From Acidimicrobiia bacterium (GTDB lineage: Bacteria; Actinomycetota; Acidimicrobiia; Spongiisociales; ZC4RG35), in the NCBI GenBank assembly GCA_040905905.1, contig JBBDQN010000057.1, forward strand, positions 165 to 64,164: 64,000 bases of DNA. Reading direction: 5' to 3'. Each line of letters starts with the position of its first letter. Position 1 is the stretch's first letter. The notes beneath the pieces are model-generated. The model was given only the letters and a program-made list of their open reading frames with translations. It made no database searches and was not told the origin of the DNA. The position numbers and the translations under genes were made by a program. This document shows, piece after piece, positions 12,002 to 30,244 of the stretch.

Positions 12002-13518
12002 CCCGCCAGCCCCGAATGCCCTACCGGGTAGAGACCAGGAATGGAAACCGGCAGGTGTCCCGGAAAGGTGGCCTTGCCGAAGAGGGCGGCGGCCACCGCT
12101 TGAAGGGAGGGTGGGTGAATTCCGTAGGTGCAGACGTAGGTTGGCAACTCGGGAAACAGCGCCAGGTCGTAGGGAGTGCGAAGGGCTACTCCGACCAGAG
12201 GTTTGCCGGTGGCAAGACAGGTCTGCATCAGATCCGCTTGCTCCCGGTTGGCATCGATGGTGCCAACTATCAGCACGTCGTGCCCATCTGCCTGCTCCAC
12301 TACCGATTCGATCTCACCCGGGGTCGGGTGAGCCGCCACCACTATCTCGGTCACAACAGGATGATGGTGGCGGATCGCCGCGGCCAGACCCGGTTCGACA
12401 TAGGAGGAAGTGTCGGCCGGGGTGAGGTCGATCGGTCGCGGCATGACCACGAGGACTCGCCCTCCCGAGTCGAGCGGAAGCAGGCCATTGAGATCGCGCA
12501 CATGGGTGATCGACCTGGCAGCGAGTTCGTCCGCCAGCAGTCGGTGGGCGCTGCAACCAACCACCGTGAGCTTTGGCTGCGGAAACTGGTCCAGCCACTT
12601 GAGCAGGTCGTCTACCCGGCCCGACTGATCCGCCATCCCGGTTACCGACGCCCCGGCCTGGGCCGGACCTAACAGGAGGAGATCGGCGCCGGCTCGAAGC
12701 GGCGTCTCCGGCGCCAATCCACCAAAGGCTCCCATGTCGAGGGCATCGGTGACGATGACACCGCCAAACCCCAACGACCCCCGGATAAGGCCCTGGAGCA
12801 CTCCCGGAGATGCAGAAGCGGGCAAAGCCCGATCTCCCGTGACCGCAGGAAGGCCGTAGTGGCCGACCATGACCAGACGGGCTCCGGCTTCGATCCCGGC
12901 CCGGAAGGGCGCGAACTCCACCCGCTCCAGTCGTTCCAGGTCGAGGTCGAGGACCGGCAACTCGTAGTGAGGGTCGACGGTTGCCTCCCCTTTTCCCGGG
13001 AAGTGTTTGAGGGTTGCAGCCACACCGGCCTGCTGAAGCCCGCTCACCATTGCCGCGGTCATCCGGGCGACCTCACCTGGTTCTTCGCCGAAGGAGCGAA
13101 TGCCCAGAGAGGGGTTGTAGGGGCGGCTAGCCACATCGGCCACAGGTGCGTAGTTGAGGTTGATGCCGAGCGCCCGCAACTCAAGTCCGATTGCGTTTCC
13201 AACCCGCCGGGTCAGGTCAGCGTCGCCCACGGCGCCGAGGGCAAGGTTGCCCGCAAAGGCGGTGGTCTCCGCACCCGCCCCCAAGAGCTGTCCGCCTTCT
13301 TGATCGATGGCGATGAGCAGCCGGCCCCCGCCCGCTCGCTGGAGTTCGTCGGTCAGACGGCGGGTCTGGGCGGCGGACTCGATATTGAGGCCCCGGAACA
13401 GTGTCACTCCTGCCACCTGGGGCTGTCGGATGAGCCTGGCTACCTCGTCGGTGACGCTGAAGCCGTGGAAGGCCACGAGCGCAACCAGAGCGACCTCCTC
13501 CGCCGCAGCCGCGGGCAT
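11998..13518 (-). CDS. nagZ: Glycoside hydrolase family 3 beta-N-acetylhexosaminidase (NagZ-like).
   Basis: GH3 N-terminal domain motifs: IDQEGG, KHFPGKG, VMVGHY, VIVTDALDMGA. Confidence 0.85.
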   Translation of the reverse strand: MPAAAAEEVALVALVAFHGFSVTDEVARLIRQPQVAGVTLFRGLNIESAAQTRRLTDELQRAGGGRLLIAIDQEGGQLLGAGAETTAFAGNLALGAVGDADLTRRVGNAIGLELRALGINLNYAPVADVASRPYNPSLGIRSFGEEPGEVARMTAAMVSGLQQAGVAATLKHFPGKGEATVDPHYELPVLDLDLERLERVEFAPFRAGIEAGARLVMVGHYGLPAVTGDRALPASASPGVLQGLIRGSLGFGGVIVTDALDMGAFGGLAPETPLRAGADLLLLGPAQAGASVTGMADQSGRVDDLLKWLDQFPQPKLTVVGCSAHRLLADELAARSITHVRDLNGLLPLDSGGRVLVVMPRPIDLTPADTSSYVEPGLAAAIRHHHPVVTEIVVAAHPTPGEIESVVEQADGHDVLIVGTIDANREQADLMQTCLATGKPLVGVALRTPYDLALFPELPTYVCTYGIHPPSLQAVAAALFGKATFPGHLPVSIPGLYPVGHSGLAG

Positions 13519-23197: not shown

Positions 23198-24070
23198 TTG
23201 GAGGGTGGATCAGCAGCTGGACGGGTCGTGGCCGGCGTCGACCTAACACCAATCGGTCGCAGAGTGGCCGAACGCGGCCGTTTGGTGGCCGAAGCCCACG
23301 GCCTCGACCTGCACCTGGTCACCGTGAGCGAGTCCTCATCTGAGGCCCTTCTGGATGACGGGTTGGGAAAGATCCTGTTTGATCACCACCGCCAACATGT
23401 GAACGATCTGGCGGCGTGGTGCCAGAGCCGGAGTCAGCTGACGGTGAGCCATGAGGCAGTGAAAGGTTCCATCGGCTGGGAACTGGTCCGGCGGGCGAAA
23501 ACCGCGTCATTGGTGGTGGTAGGGACATCGTCGGTGGACGTCGAGCGTTGTGGTCCTATAGCCCGCCGTATAGCGATCATGTCGACGGGGGACGTTCTCG
23601 TGGTTCGCCGGCAACCTCGCACCGGCTACCGAAAAGTGATGGCGGCCGTCGACCTCTCCGCCCATTCGCGACAGGCCGTTGACAAGGCCTTGGCGTGGAA
23701 TCCCGAGGCCGACGTTACCGCGATATTTGCCCTCCCCTCCCGCTGGGACCCCGCCCTGACCGGGGCCGGGCTCTTTGACGTCGAGCTTGCGGCCTCCCGC
23801 AGGTCACGCATGCAGCGGGCCGTCGAGGAGATGGAGGAGTTCGCCGCCAATTGGCCCGGAAGGGTCAAGCCGATGGTCGTCGATGGACCCCCCCACACTG
23901 CCATCGATGAGGCCGTCCGGCGCCGGGGAGCCGATTTGGTGGTTGTCGCCAATCGCGGCGCCGGGGCCACGAAGATGGTCTTGCTGGGGACGGTCGCCGA
24001 CGGCGTTTTGGAGGCCATGCCCTGCGATGTCCTGGTAGCGAGGGTCCCCGGGGAGTTTCGCCGCCCCTAG
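23198..24070 (+). CDS. Universal stress protein with tandem UspA domains.
   Basis: Two Usp-like halves. The C-terminal half carries the ATP-binding-type motif VVVANRGAGATKMVLLGTVADGVL. Confidence 0.7.
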   Translation: MEGGSAAGRVVAGVDLTPIGRRVAERGRLVAEAHGLDLHLVTVSESSSEALLDDGLGKILFDHHRQHVNDLAAWCQSRSQLTVSHEAVKGSIGWELVRRAKTASLVVVGTSSVDVERCGPIARRIAIMSTGDVLVVRRQPRTGYRKVMAAVDLSAHSRQAVDKALAWNPEADVTAIFALPSRWDPALTGAGLFDVELAASRRSRMQRAVEEMEEFAANWPGRVKPMVVDGPPHTAIDEAVRRRGADLVVVANRGAGATKMVLLGTVADGVLEAMPCDVLVARVPGEFRRP

Positions 24071-24117: not shown

Positions 24118-24801
24118 GTGGCCAACGTAACCAAAATGGACCACATTTCCGATGCACGGATCCTGGTGGTCGAAGACCAACCAGCCGACCGACATCTGAT
24201 CGAGCAGGTCCTGGCAGCAGCCGGCTTTCGCAATGTCGGCCTTTCCTCCGACCCGCGCGCGGTGGCAACCGAGTTCGATCCTCTCCGGCTCGACCTTCTC
24301 GTACTGGACCTGTGGATGCCAGGTATGGATGGCTTTGCCCTCTTGCGCCAACTCCGGGAGCGGATCCCATCCGATTCGTATTTTCCGGTTTTGGTTATCA
24401 CAGCCGATGTCACTGTGGACACACGGCGACGGGCGCTGCTGGCCGGTGCCACCGACTTTCTCACCAAACCGATCGATGTGGTCGAGGTGACACTCCGGGT
24501 GAGACAGTTGCTAGAGACCCGCAGGCTCCAGGTTGAGCTCGCTCACCAGCGCAGACAGGTAGAGGTCACCATAAATGAACTACGGACGCCGCTGGCCAAT
24601 GTGCTTGAGGTGGCCCGGAAGCTCACGGAATCGATCAGTTCCCTGCCTTCGGATGAGACCGAGTACTTGATCCGGCTGATCGCCGAAGAGGCAAACGAGG
24701 CGGCGGTGATCATCAACGACCTGTTGGCCGGGGCACAGACAGACACCAACGGCGCCGCCGGCCACAACGATCCAGTCACGCTGCGCGTCCGGGCCCTTTA
24801 G
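24118..24801 (+). CDS. Response-regulator receiver domain fused to a degenerate HisKA/DHp-like helix in which the conserved His is replaced by Asn. It has no ATPase domain.
   Basis: REC: ILVVEDQPADR...LLVLDLWMPGMDG...TKP. The C-terminus carries INELRTPLANVLEVARKL, which can be compared with the H-box MSHELRTPLNSIIGFAQLL of the adjacent kinase. Confidence 0.8.
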   Translation: MANVTKMDHISDARILVVEDQPADRHLIEQVLAAAGFRNVGLSSDPRAVATEFDPLRLDLLVLDLWMPGMDGFALLRQLRERIPSDSYFPVLVITADVTVDTRRRALLAGATDFLTKPIDVVEVTLRVRQLLETRRLQVELAHQRRQVEVTINELRTPLANVLEVARKLTESISSLPSDETEYLIRLIAEEANEAAVIINDLLAGAQTDTNGAAGHNDPVTLRVRAL

Positions 24802-24804
24802 CTC

Positions 24805-26748
24805 ATGTACGAAAGCGGGTCCCTGCCCGGCACATTCGAGGACCACCAGGACGTTCTCGAGCATCTCATCGACTCCGGGCCGATCTTGATGTTCAGCGAG
24901 AGCCTCCCGGACCGAAGGATCTCATACGCAAGCGCAAACTTCGAGCGCCTCCTTGGTTATGCCCTCAGCGACGTAATAGGTGCTCGGCGGTTCTTTGCGG
25001 CTCTGATCGTCCCCGATGACCGGTCCCGATATGAGGAGCTGATGACCCGACTCGTCGCCGGTGAATCTGAAACTCGGGAAGGTGAATATGAGCTCATCGA
25101 CGGCCACGGCAACCGGCGGTGGTTCATGATCGCTTCCCGTCTGGACACCCGGGCAGACCTGCCCCACTCGCTCTTGGGGTACGCGGCCGACGTCACCGAT
25201 CGGGTGGTGGCCTTTCGCTTTGCCCGGGAGGCCGTCGAGAAGTACGAGGCGATTTTCACAGGAGTGCCCTCGGGGATTTTTCGCAGCTCGCCAGAAGGGA
25301 CGATTCTCGAAGCCAATCCAAAACTGGCAGAAATCCTTGGCTATGACTCCACCGACGACCTCAAACGCTTGGTACCCGATGTGGCTTCTCTCTATGTCGA
25401 TCCTCGCGAGCGACTTGGTTTCATGGAGCAGGTGGGCACCCACGGTTCGGTGCAGAACTTTGAGACCAAGCTCAGACGCCGCACGGGGGAGATAATCGAC
25501 ATTTCGATGAATGCCAGCGTCGTGCGCGACCGTGATGGGAGTGTGCTCGGTTTCGAAGGGACCCTGGTTGATGTGACCGACCAACGCCAGGCCGAAGCAG
25601 AGGCCCGCAAGGCGCGGGCGGAAGCCGATCGGGCTAACCAGGCCAAGAGTGTTTTCCTGTCTCGCATGAGCCACGAGCTGCGGACTCCGCTCAACTCGAT
25701 CATTGGGTTTGCCCAACTGCTCGAGTTTCGCGAGCCGGAACCAGGCGTGGCCGACGCCGCCCATCACATCATCAAGGGCGGGCAACACCTACTGGAGTTG
25801 ATAAACGAAGTCTTGGACATTGCCCGCGTCGAGGCCGGCCGTATTGCCATGAGCCTGGAACCGGTACACCTTGGTGATGCTATTGCGGATGCCCTGGAGC
25901 TGATTCGTCCACTGGCTGAGGCACGCCAGATTGCTGTCACCGGTGGCGGACATCAAGGCTGCCAACATCTCGTCCTGAGTGATCGACAACGGCTGAAGCA
26001 GGTCCTACTCAATTTGCTCTCGAATGCGGTCAAGTACAACCGTGAAGGCGGCAGCGTCGATGTCACCTGCAGCTGCGACGATCACCATGCGAGCGTGTCC
26101 GTCACCGACACGGGACCCGGGATCGCTCCCGAGCACCTCGGTCGTCTATTCGCTCCTTTTGACCGGCTGGCGGCCGATATCTCAGGCGAGGAGGGGACGG
26201 GATTGGGCCTCACCCTCTCGCGCCACCTCACAGAGGCGATGGGGGGAGTCCTCGATGTCGTTTCCGTCGTCGGTCATGGGTCAACATTCACAGTGACCCT
26301 GGCGTCCACCAACGCCACCGAGCGTCCGCGGCCAAGCGAGAACGGCGACGGCTCGGGGGCGGTAGCGAGGATGGTCGAAGAACGTTCGATCCTGTACGTC
26401 GAAGACAACCTCGCAAGTGTGACTCTCATCGAGCAGATCATGACCCTTCGACCCGGGATAACCTTGAAATCGGTGATGCAAGGCCGGCTAGGGCTTGACT
26501 TTGCTCGCGAACACCACCCCGACCTGATCCTGCTCGACATGAACCTCCCGGACACGTCGGGCAAAGAAGTGCTGAGCGAGCTGAAAATCGACCCACGGAC
26601 AGCGGATATCCCGGTTCTCATGCTCTCAGCGGATGCCAGTCCGGGCCAGATCCAGCGCCTGATGGACAGCGGCGCCGATGGGTATATAACAAAACCCCTC
26701 GACCTCCCTCACTTTTTGGAAGAGATCGACCGATTACTTCACCTGTGA
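24805..26748 (+). CDS. Hybrid sensor histidine kinase (PAS - HisKA - HATPase_c - REC).
   Basis: H-box SHELRTPLNSIIGF. N/G boxes NLLSNAVKYN and DTGPGI...GTGLGL. C-terminal REC (ILYVEDN...LLDMNLPDTSG...TKP). Confidence 0.9.
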   Translation: MYESGSLPGTFEDHQDVLEHLIDSGPILMFSESLPDRRISYASANFERLLGYALSDVIGARRFFAALIVPDDRSRYEELMTRLVAGESETREGEYELIDGHGNRRWFMIASRLDTRADLPHSLLGYAADVTDRVVAFRFAREAVEKYEAIFTGVPSGIFRSSPEGTILEANPKLAEILGYDSTDDLKRLVPDVASLYVDPRERLGFMEQVGTHGSVQNFETKLRRRTGEIIDISMNASVVRDRDGSVLGFEGTLVDVTDQRQAEAEARKARAEADRANQAKSVFLSRMSHELRTPLNSIIGFAQLLEFREPEPGVADAAHHIIKGGQHLLELINEVLDIARVEAGRIAMSLEPVHLGDAIADALELIRPLAEARQIAVTGGGHQGCQHLVLSDRQRLKQVLLNLLSNAVKYNREGGSVDVTCSCDDHHASVSVTDTGPGIAPEHLGRLFAPFDRLAADISGEEGTGLGLTLSRHLTEAMGGVLDVVSVVGHGSTFTVTLASTNATERPRPSENGDGSGAVARMVEERSILYVEDNLASVTLIEQIMTLRPGITLKSVMQGRLGLDFAREHHPDLILLDMNLPDTSGKEVLSELKIDPRTADIPVLMLSADASPGQIQRLMDSGADGYITKPLDLPHFLEEIDRLLHL

Positions 26749-27773
26749 CGGTGACCGACCAGCAGCTTTGGACCAGGCGCATCCTGGTGGTCGACGACCA
26801 TCAGGAGAACGTGTTGCTGTTGAGGGGCCTGCTCGCCGCGGGTGGCTATGTCAATGTCAGGGACACTCGCGATTCCAGACAGGTCATGTCGATCGTCGAC
26901 GCTTGGAACCCGGATCTGATCCTCCTCGATCTTCACATGCCTCACATCGACGGTCACACCTTGTTGACTCAGCTTGGCACGAGACGGTCTGATAGCTTCT
27001 TGCCCGTCCTGGTCCTTACCGCCGACGACACCATCGAGGCCAAACGCCGGGCGCTCGACGCCGGGGCGTCCGACTTTCTCCTCAAACCATTCGATCTGGT
27101 CGAGGTGCGGTTGCGGGTTCGCAACCTGCTCTTCACTCGATGTCTCCATCAGCAATTACTCGAGGGGCAGGCGCTTCTGGAGAATCGGGTTGAGGAGCGC
27201 ACTGCTGAACTGGCAGCCTCGCAACGGGAGATGATCGATCGCCTGGCATTGGCGGCCGAGTACCGCGACTATGCCACCGCCAAACACACCCAACGAGTCG
27301 GCATTCTCTCGGCCCGGATCGCGCTCGCATTGGGGTTGGACGACCGTGAGTTGGAGGTCATCCGGCTGGCGGCGCCCTTGCATGACATCGGCAAGATCGG
27401 TGTGCCTGACCACATCCTTCTGAAACCTGGACCCTTGACCGATCAGGAGTACGTCGAGGTCAAGAAACATGTGACCATCGGGGCGTCAATCCTCTCCGGT
27501 GGCACCACCGAGTTGCTCCACCGTGCCGAGCAGGTGGCCCTGACCCACCATGAACGCTGGGACGGCACCGGCTACCTGGGACTGGTCGGAGAGGACATTC
27601 CGTTATCCGCTCGGATAGTTTCCGTGGCCGACGTTTACGACGCGTTGATCTCGGTTCGTCCGTACAAGGATGCCTGGCCTCACGATGAGGCTGTTGGGGA
27701 GATCACCCGTCTGGCTGGTCTGCATTTTGACCCGAAGGTTGTTGAGGCCTTCTTGCAGACTTTCGAAGACTGA
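26745..27773 (+). CDS. Response regulator with an HD-GYP domain (probable c-di-GMP phosphodiesterase, RpfG-like).
   Basis: REC (ILVVDDHQ...LLDLHMPHIDG...LKP), then HD (PLHDIGKIGVPD) and HHERWDGTGYLGL, a GYP-motif variant. The start overlaps the kinase stop by 4 nt. Confidence 0.85.
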   Translation: MTVTDQQLWTRRILVVDDHQENVLLLRGLLAAGGYVNVRDTRDSRQVMSIVDAWNPDLILLDLHMPHIDGHTLLTQLGTRRSDSFLPVLVLTADDTIEAKRRALDAGASDFLLKPFDLVEVRLRVRNLLFTRCLHQQLLEGQALLENRVEERTAELAASQREMIDRLALAAEYRDYATAKHTQRVGILSARIALALGLDDRELEVIRLAAPLHDIGKIGVPDHILLKPGPLTDQEYVEVKKHVTIGASILSGGTTELLHRAEQVALTHHERWDGTGYLGLVGEDIPLSARIVSVADVYDALISVRPYKDAWPHDEAVGEITRLAGLHFDPKVVEAFLQTFED

Positions 27774-27857: not shown

Positions 27858-28334
27858 ATGAGGACTGCACTCTGGGGGCTGGCCTTCCTGGTGATTGGTG
27901 TGGCGGCGAGTTTCGCCATCGGCCAACAGGAGGCGACCTCGGCCGATCCCTGTCGGTACGGAGCGGTAAGTTCAGCCTTGCTACCTCCCGAAATGACTCC
28001 GGAGCTTGAAGTGATCTCAACCGAGTCCAAAGAGGAACTGCTTAACACCCTCGCCAGCTTTTACACCAGCGGGCCAGCACCTGATGGAACTTTGGCAGGA
28101 GTAACAGCCGCCCTGAGTCGAATACCAAACAACACCGATCGTTTCGCTCAGGCCCAGGTGAACATACCCGAGGGCACCGTCGCCTTCATCGACAATGCTG
28201 GAAATGAACTAGCCAAAGTGACGATCATCGAGTTCAAAGGCCGCTGGCTGCCCATACATTCGGACGTGTGCGAAGCCACGCCTGGTGCCTCAAGGTTCGA
28301 GCTTCTTGGTTTGTACGTAGAGGACAATTCATGA
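27858..28334 (+). CDS. Small secreted hypothetical protein (signal peptide, 2 Cys) in a lower-GC segment.
   Basis: MRTALWGLAFLVIGVAASFAIGQQ is a signal peptide. There are many A/T-ending codons, and local GC drops to about 50% towards the 3' end. No recognisable domain. Confidence 0.45.
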   Translation: MRTALWGLAFLVIGVAASFAIGQQEATSADPCRYGAVSSALLPPEMTPELEVISTESKEELLNTLASFYTSGPAPDGTLAGVTAALSRIPNNTDRFAQAQVNIPEGTVAFIDNAGNELAKVTIIEFKGRWLPIHSDVCEATPGASRFELLGLYVEDNS

Positions 28335-28453: not shown

Positions 28454-28529
28454 GGGCCGGTAGCTCAATGGTCAGAGCAGCGGACTCATAATCCGTTGGT
28501 TGCAGGTTCGAGCCCTGCCCGGCCCACCA
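28454..28529 (+). tRNA. tRNA with anticodon CAT (elongator tRNA-Met, or a tRNA-Ile2 that would be lysidine-modified). CCA is encoded.
   Basis: Cloverleaf folded by hand. Acceptor GGGCCGG/CCGGCCC, D-stem GCTC/GAGC, anticodon stem GCGGA/TCCGT with loop CTCATAA, and T-arm GCAGG-TTCGAGC-CCTGC. G1-C72 is paired, so it is not an initiator. Confidence 0.9.
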
Positions 28530-29143
28530 TGACCACAGTGAGTGCAATTGAGGCCCGCATCCTCGGGGTGCTAGTGGAGAAACAGATGACCACTCCCGAC
28601 ATCTATCCGCTCACACTGGCCGGCGTGGTGGCGGGAAGCAACCAATCCACCAACCGTGACCCTGTGATGTCAGTGAGTGAAAGGGAGGCCGAGGCCGCCT
28701 TGACTCGGCTCCATGAGATCGGATTGGCGACACCGGTTCGAAGGCCTGCCGACCGGGCCCTCAAGTATCGGCACAAGCTCACCGAAGCGCTGGAGCTCGA
28801 TCAGCCCACGCTGGCGGTGTTGGCTGTGCTTCTGCTCCGTGGACCGCAAACGGTTGGTGAACTGCGCCAACGCACCGAGCGCTACGTGACGTTCGACACC
28901 ATCGAAGACGTCGAGCGGATCGTCGACCGCCTCGAAGAGTTAGATCTGGCCAGGCGTCTAGCCCGGCAGCCGGGTCAGAGCCAGCGGCGCGTCAAGGAAC
29001 TCATGTCGGATGGCGGCACAGATGTCGACCAAGCACACACGCCAACAGTTGACGTGGGGACCAATGAGCTTGAAATACGTGTTGCCGCGCTGGAAAAGCG
29101 CTTCGACGAACTCTTACGCAGACTTGGTGTGGACGACTTATGA
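28529..29143 (+). CDS. YceH/DUF480 (UPF0502) family protein.
   Basis: MTTVSAIEARILGVLVEKQMTTPDIYPLTLAGVVAGSNQSTNRDPVMSVSEREAEAAL aligns closely with the E. coli YceH N-terminus. The homologous start ATG at 28529 shares its A with the tRNA 3'-terminal CCA. The track's TTG at 28496 would lie inside the tRNA. Confidence 0.8.
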   Translation: MTTVSAIEARILGVLVEKQMTTPDIYPLTLAGVVAGSNQSTNRDPVMSVSEREAEAALTRLHEIGLATPVRRPADRALKYRHKLTEALELDQPTLAVLAVLLLRGPQTVGELRQRTERYVTFDTIEDVERIVDRLEELDLARRLARQPGQSQRRVKELMSDGGTDVDQAHTPTVDVGTNELEIRVAALEKRFDELLRRLGVDDL

Positions 29144-30244
29144 CGCTGGCGGTCCGTGGTTGTGTTGTCTTATGAGTCGTCGGCGTTGGGGTGGACTGTC
29201 GGGGTCGATCCGATAGCCGAGCCCGTGGATAGCGACATGATGATGAAACCAACACAACAGAGCCAGGTTGGTGGGGTCGTGATCGCCGCCTTGTGACCAT
29301 TCCCTGATGTGGTGGGGTTGGAGCCGATAGCGGGATCGGCAGCCGTCGATGACACAGATCCCCTGGTCCCGGTTCCACACATGCGAACGGACCGCCGGGG
29401 GGATCGTCTCTGATAGGTCGGATACTCCGATTGGCCGGCTGTCGTCACCGGCGAAGATGATCCTGACCCTCCCGGTGCAGAGAATCTCGGAGAGGGTGTT
29501 GGGTCCAGCCCGCAGTCCTGACGACAACGTCACCCCGGCTTCCCCGAAGGTGGGGGCGGCCAGGTGGGCGTCGATGAAGATCTCGGCGACGGTCACTTCC
29601 CGACCCTCGGATCCTTCCGAGCCGCCGGTGAGAGAGTCGAGACAGACCGAGGTCAATGCATCCGCCAACCGTTGGTTCCGACTTTCACCTGGAAGAGGTG
29701 TGAACCCGTCGGCCTTCTGCAACAAGGCCTTCTCCACCAGTTGACCGTCCATACCGGCCAGCAACCCCCACAGCCGCCAGGCAGATTCGTCCAGGTTGGG
29801 CTGGATCACCAGGAAACGGTCAGCAACAGTTGCGACCTCATCGGTGGCGGCGATCCGCTTGCGGGCAGCCACGAGCCGTTCCAACCCCGCCAGATCAAAC
29901 CCCAAAGACGCAGCCATCTCGGAATCGGAAGCGCCCGCCAGGCGGAGACGGGCCATCAGCACCGCCCGCTCCAACCCGATCTCCCCGGAAGCCAACAGGC
30001 CCTCCACCTTGCGGTCTTCGGCTCGGGCAAGAAACACGAGGTCCCGGGCTATCGGATGCGACACATCGAGACGGGAAGCCACCCACTCCACCATGGTCCG
30101 GGACCCGTCAGCAGTAGCTACCTGGTCGAGATCCAACCTGCGGAGAAGCTCCAACTGACGGGCCCACACCTGTCCATGGACCCGGTGGGAGACCAACAGG
30201 TCCTGTTCCAAGGTATCGATTGTCCGGTTTCCCACTCCGTACAT
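29138..30244 (-). CDS. DUF222 + HNH endonuclease domain protein (REP13E12-like family).
   Basis: C-terminal HNH motif CVIDGCRSRYRLQPHHIREWSQGGDHDPTNLALLCWFHH. The N-terminal DUF222-like region is Ala/Leu-rich. Confidence 0.8.
   Translation of the reverse strand: MYGVGNRTIDTLEQDLLVSHRVHGQVWARQLELLRRLDLDQVATADGSRTMVEWVASRLDVSHPIARDLVFLARAEDRKVEGLLASGEIGLERAVLMARLRLAGASDSEMAASLGFDLAGLERLVAARKRIAATDEVATVADRFLVIQPNLDESAWRLWGLLAGMDGQLVEKALLQKADGFTPLPGESRNQRLADALTSVCLDSLTGGSEGSEGREVTVAEIFIDAHLAAPTFGEAGVTLSSGLRAGPNTLSEILCTGRVRIIFAGDDSRPIGVSDLSETIPPAVRSHVWNRDQGICVIDGCRSRYRLQPHHIREWSQGGDHDPTNLALLCWFHHHVAIHGLGYRIDPDSPPQRRRLIRQHNHGPPAS

Follow-up and report, generated by a model that had tools for sequence, protein, structure and literature searches.

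A receiver gene next to a hybrid histidine kinase in an Acidimicrobiia contig is a reduced orthologue of Rec-controlled histidine kinases

The window analysed here, a stretch of 64,000 nucleotides from contig JBBDQN010000057.1 of an Acidimicrobiia bacterium, contains at 24118-24801 a gene coding for a receiver (REC) domain followed by a pair of helices which resembles the dimerisation helices (DHp) of histidine kinases, without an ATPase domain (CA, HATPase_c in Pfam). The question raised by this locus is how such a protein originated, and what it may do within a tight cluster of three genes, where it is followed by a hybrid histidine kinase and by a REC-HD-GYP response regulator. In an earlier note, based on the sequence alone, it had been described as a pseudo-HisKA protein, carrying Asn in place of the phospho-acceptor His. 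The analysis reported below leads to a different answer: the gene corresponds, as positional orthologue, to a Rec-controlled histidine kinase (Rec-HK), and has been cut by two in-frame deletions to a kinase-dead protein, which probably works as a modulator of its neighbours. Taken as a whole, modulator role included, this reading is given a probability of roughly 70%.

Comparison with Pfam revealed that the receiver domain scores 86.8 bits, against a gathering cutoff of 30.2, and that no HATPase_c match is present in the protein encoded by 24118-24801. The receiver active site is intact, being formed by E19/D20, D64, T95 and K117, and D20, D64, T95 and K117 are invariant in the protein alignment of the family. 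The tail contains INELRTPLANVLEVARKL, in which Asn153 is encoded by AAT (24574-24576) and Glu154 by GAA (24577-24579). Residues are numbered here from the GTG start of the 227-amino-acid (aa) form; where ATG numbering is indicated, it refers to the 221-aa form, so that residues 115-169 in ATG numbering correspond to 121-175 in GTG numbering. Pfam HisKA (PF00512) remains below its gathering score of 26.9 bits, the whole protein scoring 23.5 bits and the tail taken by itself 25.8 bits; the match extends over residues 154-204, corresponding to profile positions 12-59 of 66, and begins just past the His position. The DHp of the orthologous kinase P0007, however, shares 41% identity with the tail over 71 aa (E=1e-14) and, on the basis of the orthologues, DHp homology is established notwithstanding the sub-threshold score. 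When compared on its own to PDB sequences, the tail produced no significant DHp match, the best one being the ERS1 DHp (E=0.15). A profile check of residues ~130-227, proposed in the earlier note, is borne out as to DHp homology, through P0007, but not as to the placement of Asn at the His position. The same note had seen a clear homology to the H-box of the downstream hybrid kinase: this amounts to 8/17 identities within a generic motif, while the tail is orthologous to the DHp of the Rec-HK found at the same locus in related genomes.

Relatives of the protein were collected by searching 5.8 billion proteins. It yielded three clusters of short forms (P0001-P0003), each 221 aa long and 86-95% identical, two clusters of 248/256 aa (P0004, P0005), ~62% identical, and a long list of REC-HisKA-HATPase_c proteins of ~385 aa, 58-60% identical and lower, in which the whole query is covered. 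Protein alignment shows that the long proteins carry SHELRTPL after a coiled-coil linker, that the 248/256-aa intermediate forms keep the linker and a complete DHp, and end where the CA domain would start, and that the short forms lack both the CA domain and an internal block of 29 residues. In an exhaustive HMM search of 1.84 billion cluster representatives, the clade of short and intermediate forms collapses into a single 50% cluster. No close relative was detected by the search of genome contigs, where the best full-coverage match was an Acidimicrobiia metagenome-assembled genome at 38% identity; two scans of metagenome contigs added one locus, truncated at residue 80, and the sample consists of four short, two intermediate and a few intact forms. 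P0002 and P0004 are named "DNA-binding response OmpR family regulator" by their JGI source, yet contain no DNA-binding domain; the name was likely transferred by mistake on account of their REC domain.

Gene order was compared as far as each contig extends, and is shared by the window with the related loci: VanY, a small open reading frame (ORF), Peptidase_S58, a DAO oxidoreductase on the opposite strand, Leu/Phe-tRNA protein transferase, Usp, a variable slot, the PAS hybrid kinase and REC-HD-GYP. The variable slot is occupied by an intact REC-HisKA-HATPase_c kinase of 389/383 aa in L003 (a contig of 1.47 Mb) and L007/L008, by the 248/256-aa form in L002 and L006, and by the short form in the window, L001, L004 and L005. 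These last are four independent assemblies, and the short form is therefore not a sequencing artefact. In a neighbour-joining tree of the region formed by REC plus linker, the four short and the two intermediate forms make up one clade, sister to the full-length P0006-P0009, and all outgroups are full-length proteins with SHELRTPL; the topology, together with the full-length outgroups, indicates that the short gene is a derived, reduced orthologue of a REC-DHp-CA kinase. LvrB of Leptospira (8vc9_A), the prototype of Rec-HKs, is matched over its entire length by the family profile (E=4.7e-32); in these kinases REC is followed by an alpha-S coiled coil, DHp and CA (PMC13269768).

A codon alignment against the intact kinases revealed two in-frame gaps: one of 133 codons, removing the CA domain, which is common to short and intermediate forms (L002 and L006 included), and one of 29 codons (87 bp), found in short forms only. 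The deleted 87 bp encode DRTAELAAANSELADLVRAKDEFxLRLG(H/R), a segment running from the last part of the signalling helix into DHp helix 1, of which it makes up the first half, His codon included; in the window protein the N-terminal half of DHp helix 1 is replaced by linker sequence. Apart from this deletion, the indels separating short and intermediate forms are limited to one 2-codon gap in the latter. The ends of the 87-bp deletion share a microhomology of only 2 nt (GA) in the codon alignment. Directly 5' of the junction, L005 and L001 have the codon AGT (Ser), the window and L004 the codon AAT (Asn); in L006 and L002, where the block is still present, the position just before it reads AGT (Ser) and AGA (Arg), respectively. 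From this comparison, Asn is a junction residue derived from Ser and not a mutated His: the point substitution of the earlier note is replaced by the loss of the His codon within the 29-codon deletion, which followed that of the CA domain. Nor is Asn conserved among orthologues, since two of the four short forms have Ser. As to His itself, the presence of which in orthologues would have refuted the note, the outcome is mixed: the closest orthologues do not have it, while the more distant CA-less P0005 and all intact orthologues do. The true His position is occupied by CAT (His) in L002 and by CGG (Arg) in L006, though these are close relatives (dS ~0.17), which indicates that the constraint on His ended once the CA domain was gone.

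The scar of the CA deletion lies within a few codons of 24787, its exact junction being ambiguous. In the C-terminus of the window protein, ...VTLRVRAL*, VTLR aligns to VDIR of the DHp-CA linker of P0007 and RAL* resembles the ...PRAL* end of intact kinases. Judging from these resemblances, the segment can be read as the DHp-CA linker joined to the original last residues, which fits an internal, in-frame deletion preserving both the stop codon and the 3-nt spacing to the kinase start.

The E-x-x-T phosphatase motif, with the acidic residue at H+1 and Thr at H+4, is present in the window protein as E154 and T157. Among the six CA-less forms Glu is invariant and Thr is found in 5/6, the exception being Arg in L005 (ELRRPL). 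The block EL..PLANV, right after the junction, is invariant in 6/6 of them (E148, L149, P152, L153, A154, N155 and V156 in ATG numbering), as are several core positions of helix 2. No invariant His was found in the tail of the six forms, invariant His residues being confined to the REC domain.

A monomer model was built with AlphaFold2 (AF2) from an alignment of 44 sequences. It predicts a REC fold with pLDDT >90, then a single continuous helix spanning the deletion junction (115-169), which a turn of three residues separates from a second helix (173-203), and a disordered end (204-221, pLDDT <50), all in ATG numbering; the tail helices have pLDDT 72-79. By a heptad-phase count, the register of the short form seems to run on unbroken over the junction, but the method is crude and is given little weight. 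A Foldseek comparison of the model against the PDB produced receiver-domain matches only, the hairpin being unmatched. By its predicted structure the tail still resembles a hairpin of helices able to fold, and the purifying selection acting on it is weakened.

The strength of selection was estimated from the ratio of nonsynonymous to synonymous substitution rates (dN/dS), calculated according to Nei-Gojobori on few sequences, all derived from metagenomes, so that counts are small and the method simple; the same calculation on REC and on the neighbouring genes provides internal controls. REC is under strong purifying selection, with dN/dS 0.10-0.14 among short forms, and in all pairs values are 0.10-0.19 for the hybrid kinase, 0.06-0.11 for REC-HD-GYP and 0.03-0.06 for Usp. 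In the DHp remnant, pairs of short forms and pairs of a short and an intermediate form have dN/dS 0.27-0.56, against 0.09 for the same columns in the intact pair L003-L007. Summing three phylogenetically independent CA-less pairs, 43 nonsynonymous changes over 479 sites and 32 synonymous changes over 181 sites were counted, a result significantly below neutrality (Fisher p=0.002) and more permissive than in L003-L007 (p=0.014). The reading frame is intact at dS ~0.9-1.0 between short and intermediate forms.

Two further observations concern the genes compared. In the intermediates P0005 (L002) and P0004 (L006) REC is relaxed too, with dN/dS 0.44 between them versus ~0.1 among short forms, and their lineage may have gone further towards loss of function than the short one. 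In the hybrid kinase, DHp helix 1 (SRMSHELRTPLNSIIGFAQLLE) does not vary across all six lineages, taken among the window and the orthologues from L002-L007, despite saturated synonymous sites (dS ~2): an unusually strong conservation of a partner-recognition helix.

These data show the order of events. The first deletion, of 133 codons, took away the entire CA domain in the ancestor shared by the 248/256-aa and 221/227-aa forms. The phospho-acceptor His was then freed from constraint, and is His in one intermediate and Arg in the other. The short lineage later lost 29 codons, which comprised the signalling helix at its end and DHp helix 1 up to its middle, together with the His, and the residue now beside ELRTPL changed from Ser to Asn in the sub-lineage of the window.

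Having neither a CA domain nor a conserved His, the protein can neither autophosphorylate, as had been noted already, nor take part in His-mediated phosphotransfer. For phosphodonor, dimerisation, partner and sign of the regulation, what follows is inferred from homologous systems and from the cluster. In Rec-HKs, phosphorylation of the receiver by an upstream hybrid kinase (LvrA) causes formation of the alpha-S coiled coil and release of the CA domain (PMC13269768). The receiver of the stub would still be phosphorylated, most likely by the PAS hybrid kinase of the same operon, as LvrA phosphorylates LvrB; this donor is suggested by the LvrA/LvrB analogy and by the operon arrangement. The REC of REC-HD-GYP (26745..27773) is the closest paralogue of the stub REC, 53% identical over 128 aa (alpha-5 and the start of the linker helix included), while the REC of the hybrid kinase itself is only 29% identical; from these values, stub and REC-HD-GYP may share a phosphodonor. 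The hairpin would still dimerise, showing the conserved E-L-x-T-P-L-A-N-V face. In HisKA kinases the segment of helix 1 from H+1 to ~H+16 docks the partner receiver and carries the E/D-x-x-T/N phosphatase motif, on which phosphatase chemistry depends, His only assisting; a CA-less HK853 construct has been reported as an active phosphatase (PMC7005713).

On these premises, the product of the gene is probably a kinase-dead, phosphorylatable receiver with a constrained DHp stub, modulating the pair formed by hybrid kinase and REC-HD-GYP. It could influence the REC-HD-GYP output in a phosphorylation-dependent way, either as an antagonist of docking or phosphatase type or as a competing phospho-acceptor. 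A more definite version, in which a dimeric stub controlled by phosphorylation engages a receiver, most plausibly that of REC-HD-GYP, and damps or gates cyclic di-GMP hydrolysis, is put forward tentatively, by analogy, as the preferred model, though with the odds against it. More conjectural still, the stub, free of His and of kinase domain, might bind that receiver (likely REC-HD-GYP) and dephosphorylate or sequester it under the control of its own REC phosphorylation, the three forms representing a stepwise series from kinase to phosphatase or adaptor.

Several observations weigh against a modulator role. The tail is 4-5 times less constrained than an intact DHp and, in the closest pair, window versus L004, its dN/dS is 1.15, a value based on only 8 changes. 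The phosphatase Thr is replaced by Arg in L005, and at the specificity positions H+7, +8, +11 and +12 the residues are not those of intact orthologues, which makes the retention of the ancestral partner uncertain. No compensatory change following the loss of the kinase was found in the hybrid kinase DHp or in helix 1 of the HD-GYP REC, and the lost kinase may thus have been peripheral to the pathway. Finally, dimerisation and partner are inferred.

Some of the same data could be accommodated by the main alternative, a protein acting only through its receiver, as a phosphate sink competing for the hybrid kinase, with a DHp remnant which is decaying and whose frame stays open only for translational coupling. 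Relaxation of the tail (dN/dS 0.3-0.55, compared to 0.09 in intact orthologues and ~0.1 in REC), the low HisKA scores of the CA-less forms (20-30 bits, against 52.5 bits for the intact P0007), the predicted disorder of the last 18 residues and the distance of 3 nt between the stop and the next start are all compatible with it, and the 53% identity between the stub REC and that of the HD-GYP regulator fits competition for one kinase. Yet dN/dS in the tail is significantly <1 (p=0.002) and, at dS ~1, the nine-residue EL..PLANV block and the hydrophobic core of both helices are invariant or conservatively substituted, whereas coupling alone would leave amino-acid identity unconstrained; moreover, no lineage has simply acquired an early stop. 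A mere sink is rather unlikely. A lower probability still is attributed to a true His-to-Asn pseudo-HisKA, which would act as an anti-kinase similar to RetS, or as a scaffold, by heterodimerising with the DHp of the hybrid kinase. The two proteins are encoded in the same operon and have the generic H-box motif in common, a gapless alignment sets Asn opposite the His of ERS1 and of P0007, and inhibition through a DHp-DHp heterodimer is known for RetS and GacS (PMC8498467). The proposal is, however, difficult to reconcile with an Asn which is the residue of a deletion junction, and Ser in 2/4 short forms, with a helix 1 whose N-terminal half consists of linker sequence, and with an identity to the neighbour DHp of only 8/17, compared to 41% over 71 aa for the orthologous Rec-HK; in addition, the neighbour DHp helix 1 is the same in lineages with and without an intact Rec-HK, showing no sign of adaptation to a new partner.

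Two further candidates were rejected on sequence grounds. A DHp-type histidine phosphotransferase, similar to Spo0B or ChpT and shuttling phosphate from the REC of the hybrid kinase to REC-HD-GYP, would suit a cluster in which the hybrid kinase has a C-terminal REC and Pfam noted no HPt domain, and its helical-hairpin fold would agree with the AF2 model; it is very improbable, because no conserved, phosphorylatable His exists on the hairpin of the six CA-less forms, the canonical one being deleted in short forms and replaced by Arg in P0004. An assembly or sequencing artefact, or a strain-specific pseudogene, is suggested by nothing beyond the unusual architecture, and its probability is negligible: three further independent assemblies contain the same 221-aa form, with the same two junctions and 86-95% identity, neither deletion shifts the frame, and REC is under strong purifying selection.

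The features of the gene and of its surroundings are reported in Table 1. The ORF is real and uninterrupted, as previously stated, and includes an internal in-frame ATG at 24136, giving the 221-aa version called in the other assemblies. The residues 5' of this ATG (ANVT/SK) are kept in P0004, P0006 and P0007, and in P0004 the internal Met of the other sequences is a Leu; for both reasons, the upstream GTG start is favoured. The cluster with hybrid HK-REC and REC-HD-GYP, also described earlier, is supported by Pfam and by gene spacing, with a 3-nt gap between the stop of the stub gene and the hybrid kinase start, and a 4-nt overlap between hybrid kinase and REC-HD-GYP. A scan for promoters and terminators produced background-level signals only.

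Table 1. Coordinates of the gene at 24118-24801, its parts, its neighbours and the intermediate forms. Positions refer to the window, unless another locus is named.
Feature	Position	Strand	Evidence
Whole gene: REC + truncated DHp hairpin	24118..24801	+	Uninterrupted ORF, 227 aa, GTG start, TAG stop at 24799-24801
Receiver (REC) domain, residues 15-128	24160..24501	+	Pfam Response_reg (PF00072), 86.8 bits, E=1.4e-24
REC alpha-5 and remaining N-terminal part of signalling (alpha-S) helix, residues 121-153, ending at Asn153	24478..24576	+	AF2 continuous helix; aligns to linker of intact orthologues
Deletion junction Asn153 (AAT) / Glu154 (GAA)	24574..24579	+	87 bp missing between 24576 and 24577 (codon alignment)
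DHp remnant, residues 154-209	24577..24744	+	Helix 1 C-terminal half (ELRTPLANVLEVARKLTESISS), turn LPSD, helix 2 (ETEYLIRLIAEEANEAAVIINDLLAGAQ)
Disordered C-terminal tail and stop codon, with CA-deletion scar	24745..24801	+	AF2 pLDDT <50
Tandem universal stress protein (Usp) gene, upstream neighbour	23198..24070	+	Pfam Usp, two stretches; same place in L001, L002, L003, L005, L007
PAS-PAS-HisKA-HATPase_c-REC hybrid histidine kinase	24805..26748	+	Pfam; syntenic across all related loci
REC-HD-GYP (HD_5) response regulator	26745..27773	+	Pfam HD_5 111.6 bits, Response_reg 93.1 bits
P0005, intermediate CA-less form	L002, 2111-2857		
P0004, intermediate CA-less form	L006, 246-1016		

Downstream of REC-HD-GYP, a 158-aa ORF with no Pfam match is located at 27858-28334 (+), and L003 contains at 12220-12681 an ORF of similar size (153 aa), also without Pfam match, in the same position; judging by position and size, the cluster could include a fourth, conserved gene at this place. 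The only Rfam match is a tRNA gene just beyond the signalling cluster, at 28454-28526 (+), with 75.9 bits. The mechanically called TTG start (28496) of the DUF480 ORF 28496-29143 falls within this tRNA gene, and the true start of the ORF is therefore probably located further downstream. Synteny with L003 and L007 stops about at this tRNA, which is adjoined by an ORF of 368 aa at 29138-30244 (-), containing an HNH endonuclease motif and a weak DUF222 match. The combination is typical of the HNH/DUF222 (13E12-repeat-like) genes common in Actinomycetota, and its position at the synteny break might suggest an insertion.

Should the stub be functional, it would show that a regulatory role requires no more than the lower half of a DHp bundle, devoid of His and ATPase domain. 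The three syntenic grades, i.e. intact kinase, CA-less forms with or without His, and CA-less forms with a truncated helix 1, provide a natural deletion series for the signalling helices of Rec-HKs, a class whose mechanism has been worked out only recently, with LvrB. If, on the contrary, the tail is merely decaying, the locus illustrates ordinary reductive evolution in a two-component cluster. The gene is in any case a tidy example of reduction of a signalling gene, not a new kind of system, and at the same time a candidate for a DHp regulator working without His.

Among known pseudokinases, DivL has Tyr at the His position (PMC4211667), while PsmA of Streptomyces combines a variable residue at this position with a dead CA and the loss of the E/DxxT/N motif (PMC12963549). 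The window protein is similarly derived from HisKA and similarly devoid of the phospho-acceptor His and, as with PsmA, the residue at the His position varies among orthologues (N/S/R/H here). DivL and PsmA, however, keep a full DHp + CA fold, while here CA is missing, helix 1 is truncated, His is deleted rather than substituted, and the input is an N-terminal REC; unlike in PsmA, E-x-x-T is retained in 5/6 CA-less forms. RetS-GacS (PMC8498467) provides a possible route by which a non-phosphorylating DHp may regulate a neighbouring kinase, but the sequence relationship between the stub and the neighbour DHp is only generic. The CA-less DHp constructs of HK853 and EnvZ (PMC7005713) are also made up of a DHp carrying E-x-x-T without CA; these are laboratory truncations with His and a complete helix 1, whereas the window protein is natural and His-free.

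The rarity of the architecture, pointed out in the earlier note, holds only in part, as unrelated REC-DHp proteins without a CA domain exist. P0157, P0237 and P0244, of 203-258 aa, also contain REC, a linker helix and an H-box-like helix pair, and lack CA, but belong to unrelated lineages (different 50% clusters), and P0237 and P0244 keep the His. P0157 (L089 323-934, a complete 203-aa ORF on a JGI contig of 976 bp) has Gln at the His position, within SVSQEARAPL, and Pfam detects only its REC; it may represent an independent origin of a His-less REC-DHp stub. P0237 (236 aa, AHDLVEPV) and P0244 (258 aa, VHDVNNAL) end with an H-box-bearing helix pair and could be DHp-type phosphotransferases or truncated Rec-HKs. 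The architecture thus appears rare, not unique, and these three proteins are seemingly uncharacterised.

The closest known system is represented by LvrB. The family profile matches it over its whole length, the intact orthologues found at the same locus have exactly the Rec-HK architecture, and the window gene adjoins a PAS hybrid kinase, as LvrB does with LvrA. Differences are found in the window protein, which lacks the CA domain, the phospho-acceptor His and ~29 residues at the alpha-S/DHp junction, the latter being the switch region in LvrB, and in the downstream regulator, which is here REC-HD-GYP and not the anti-sigma-type LvrC. By descent and by locus the protein belongs to the Rec-HK family, of which it has shed three defining features: His, CA domain and full-length alpha-S helix.

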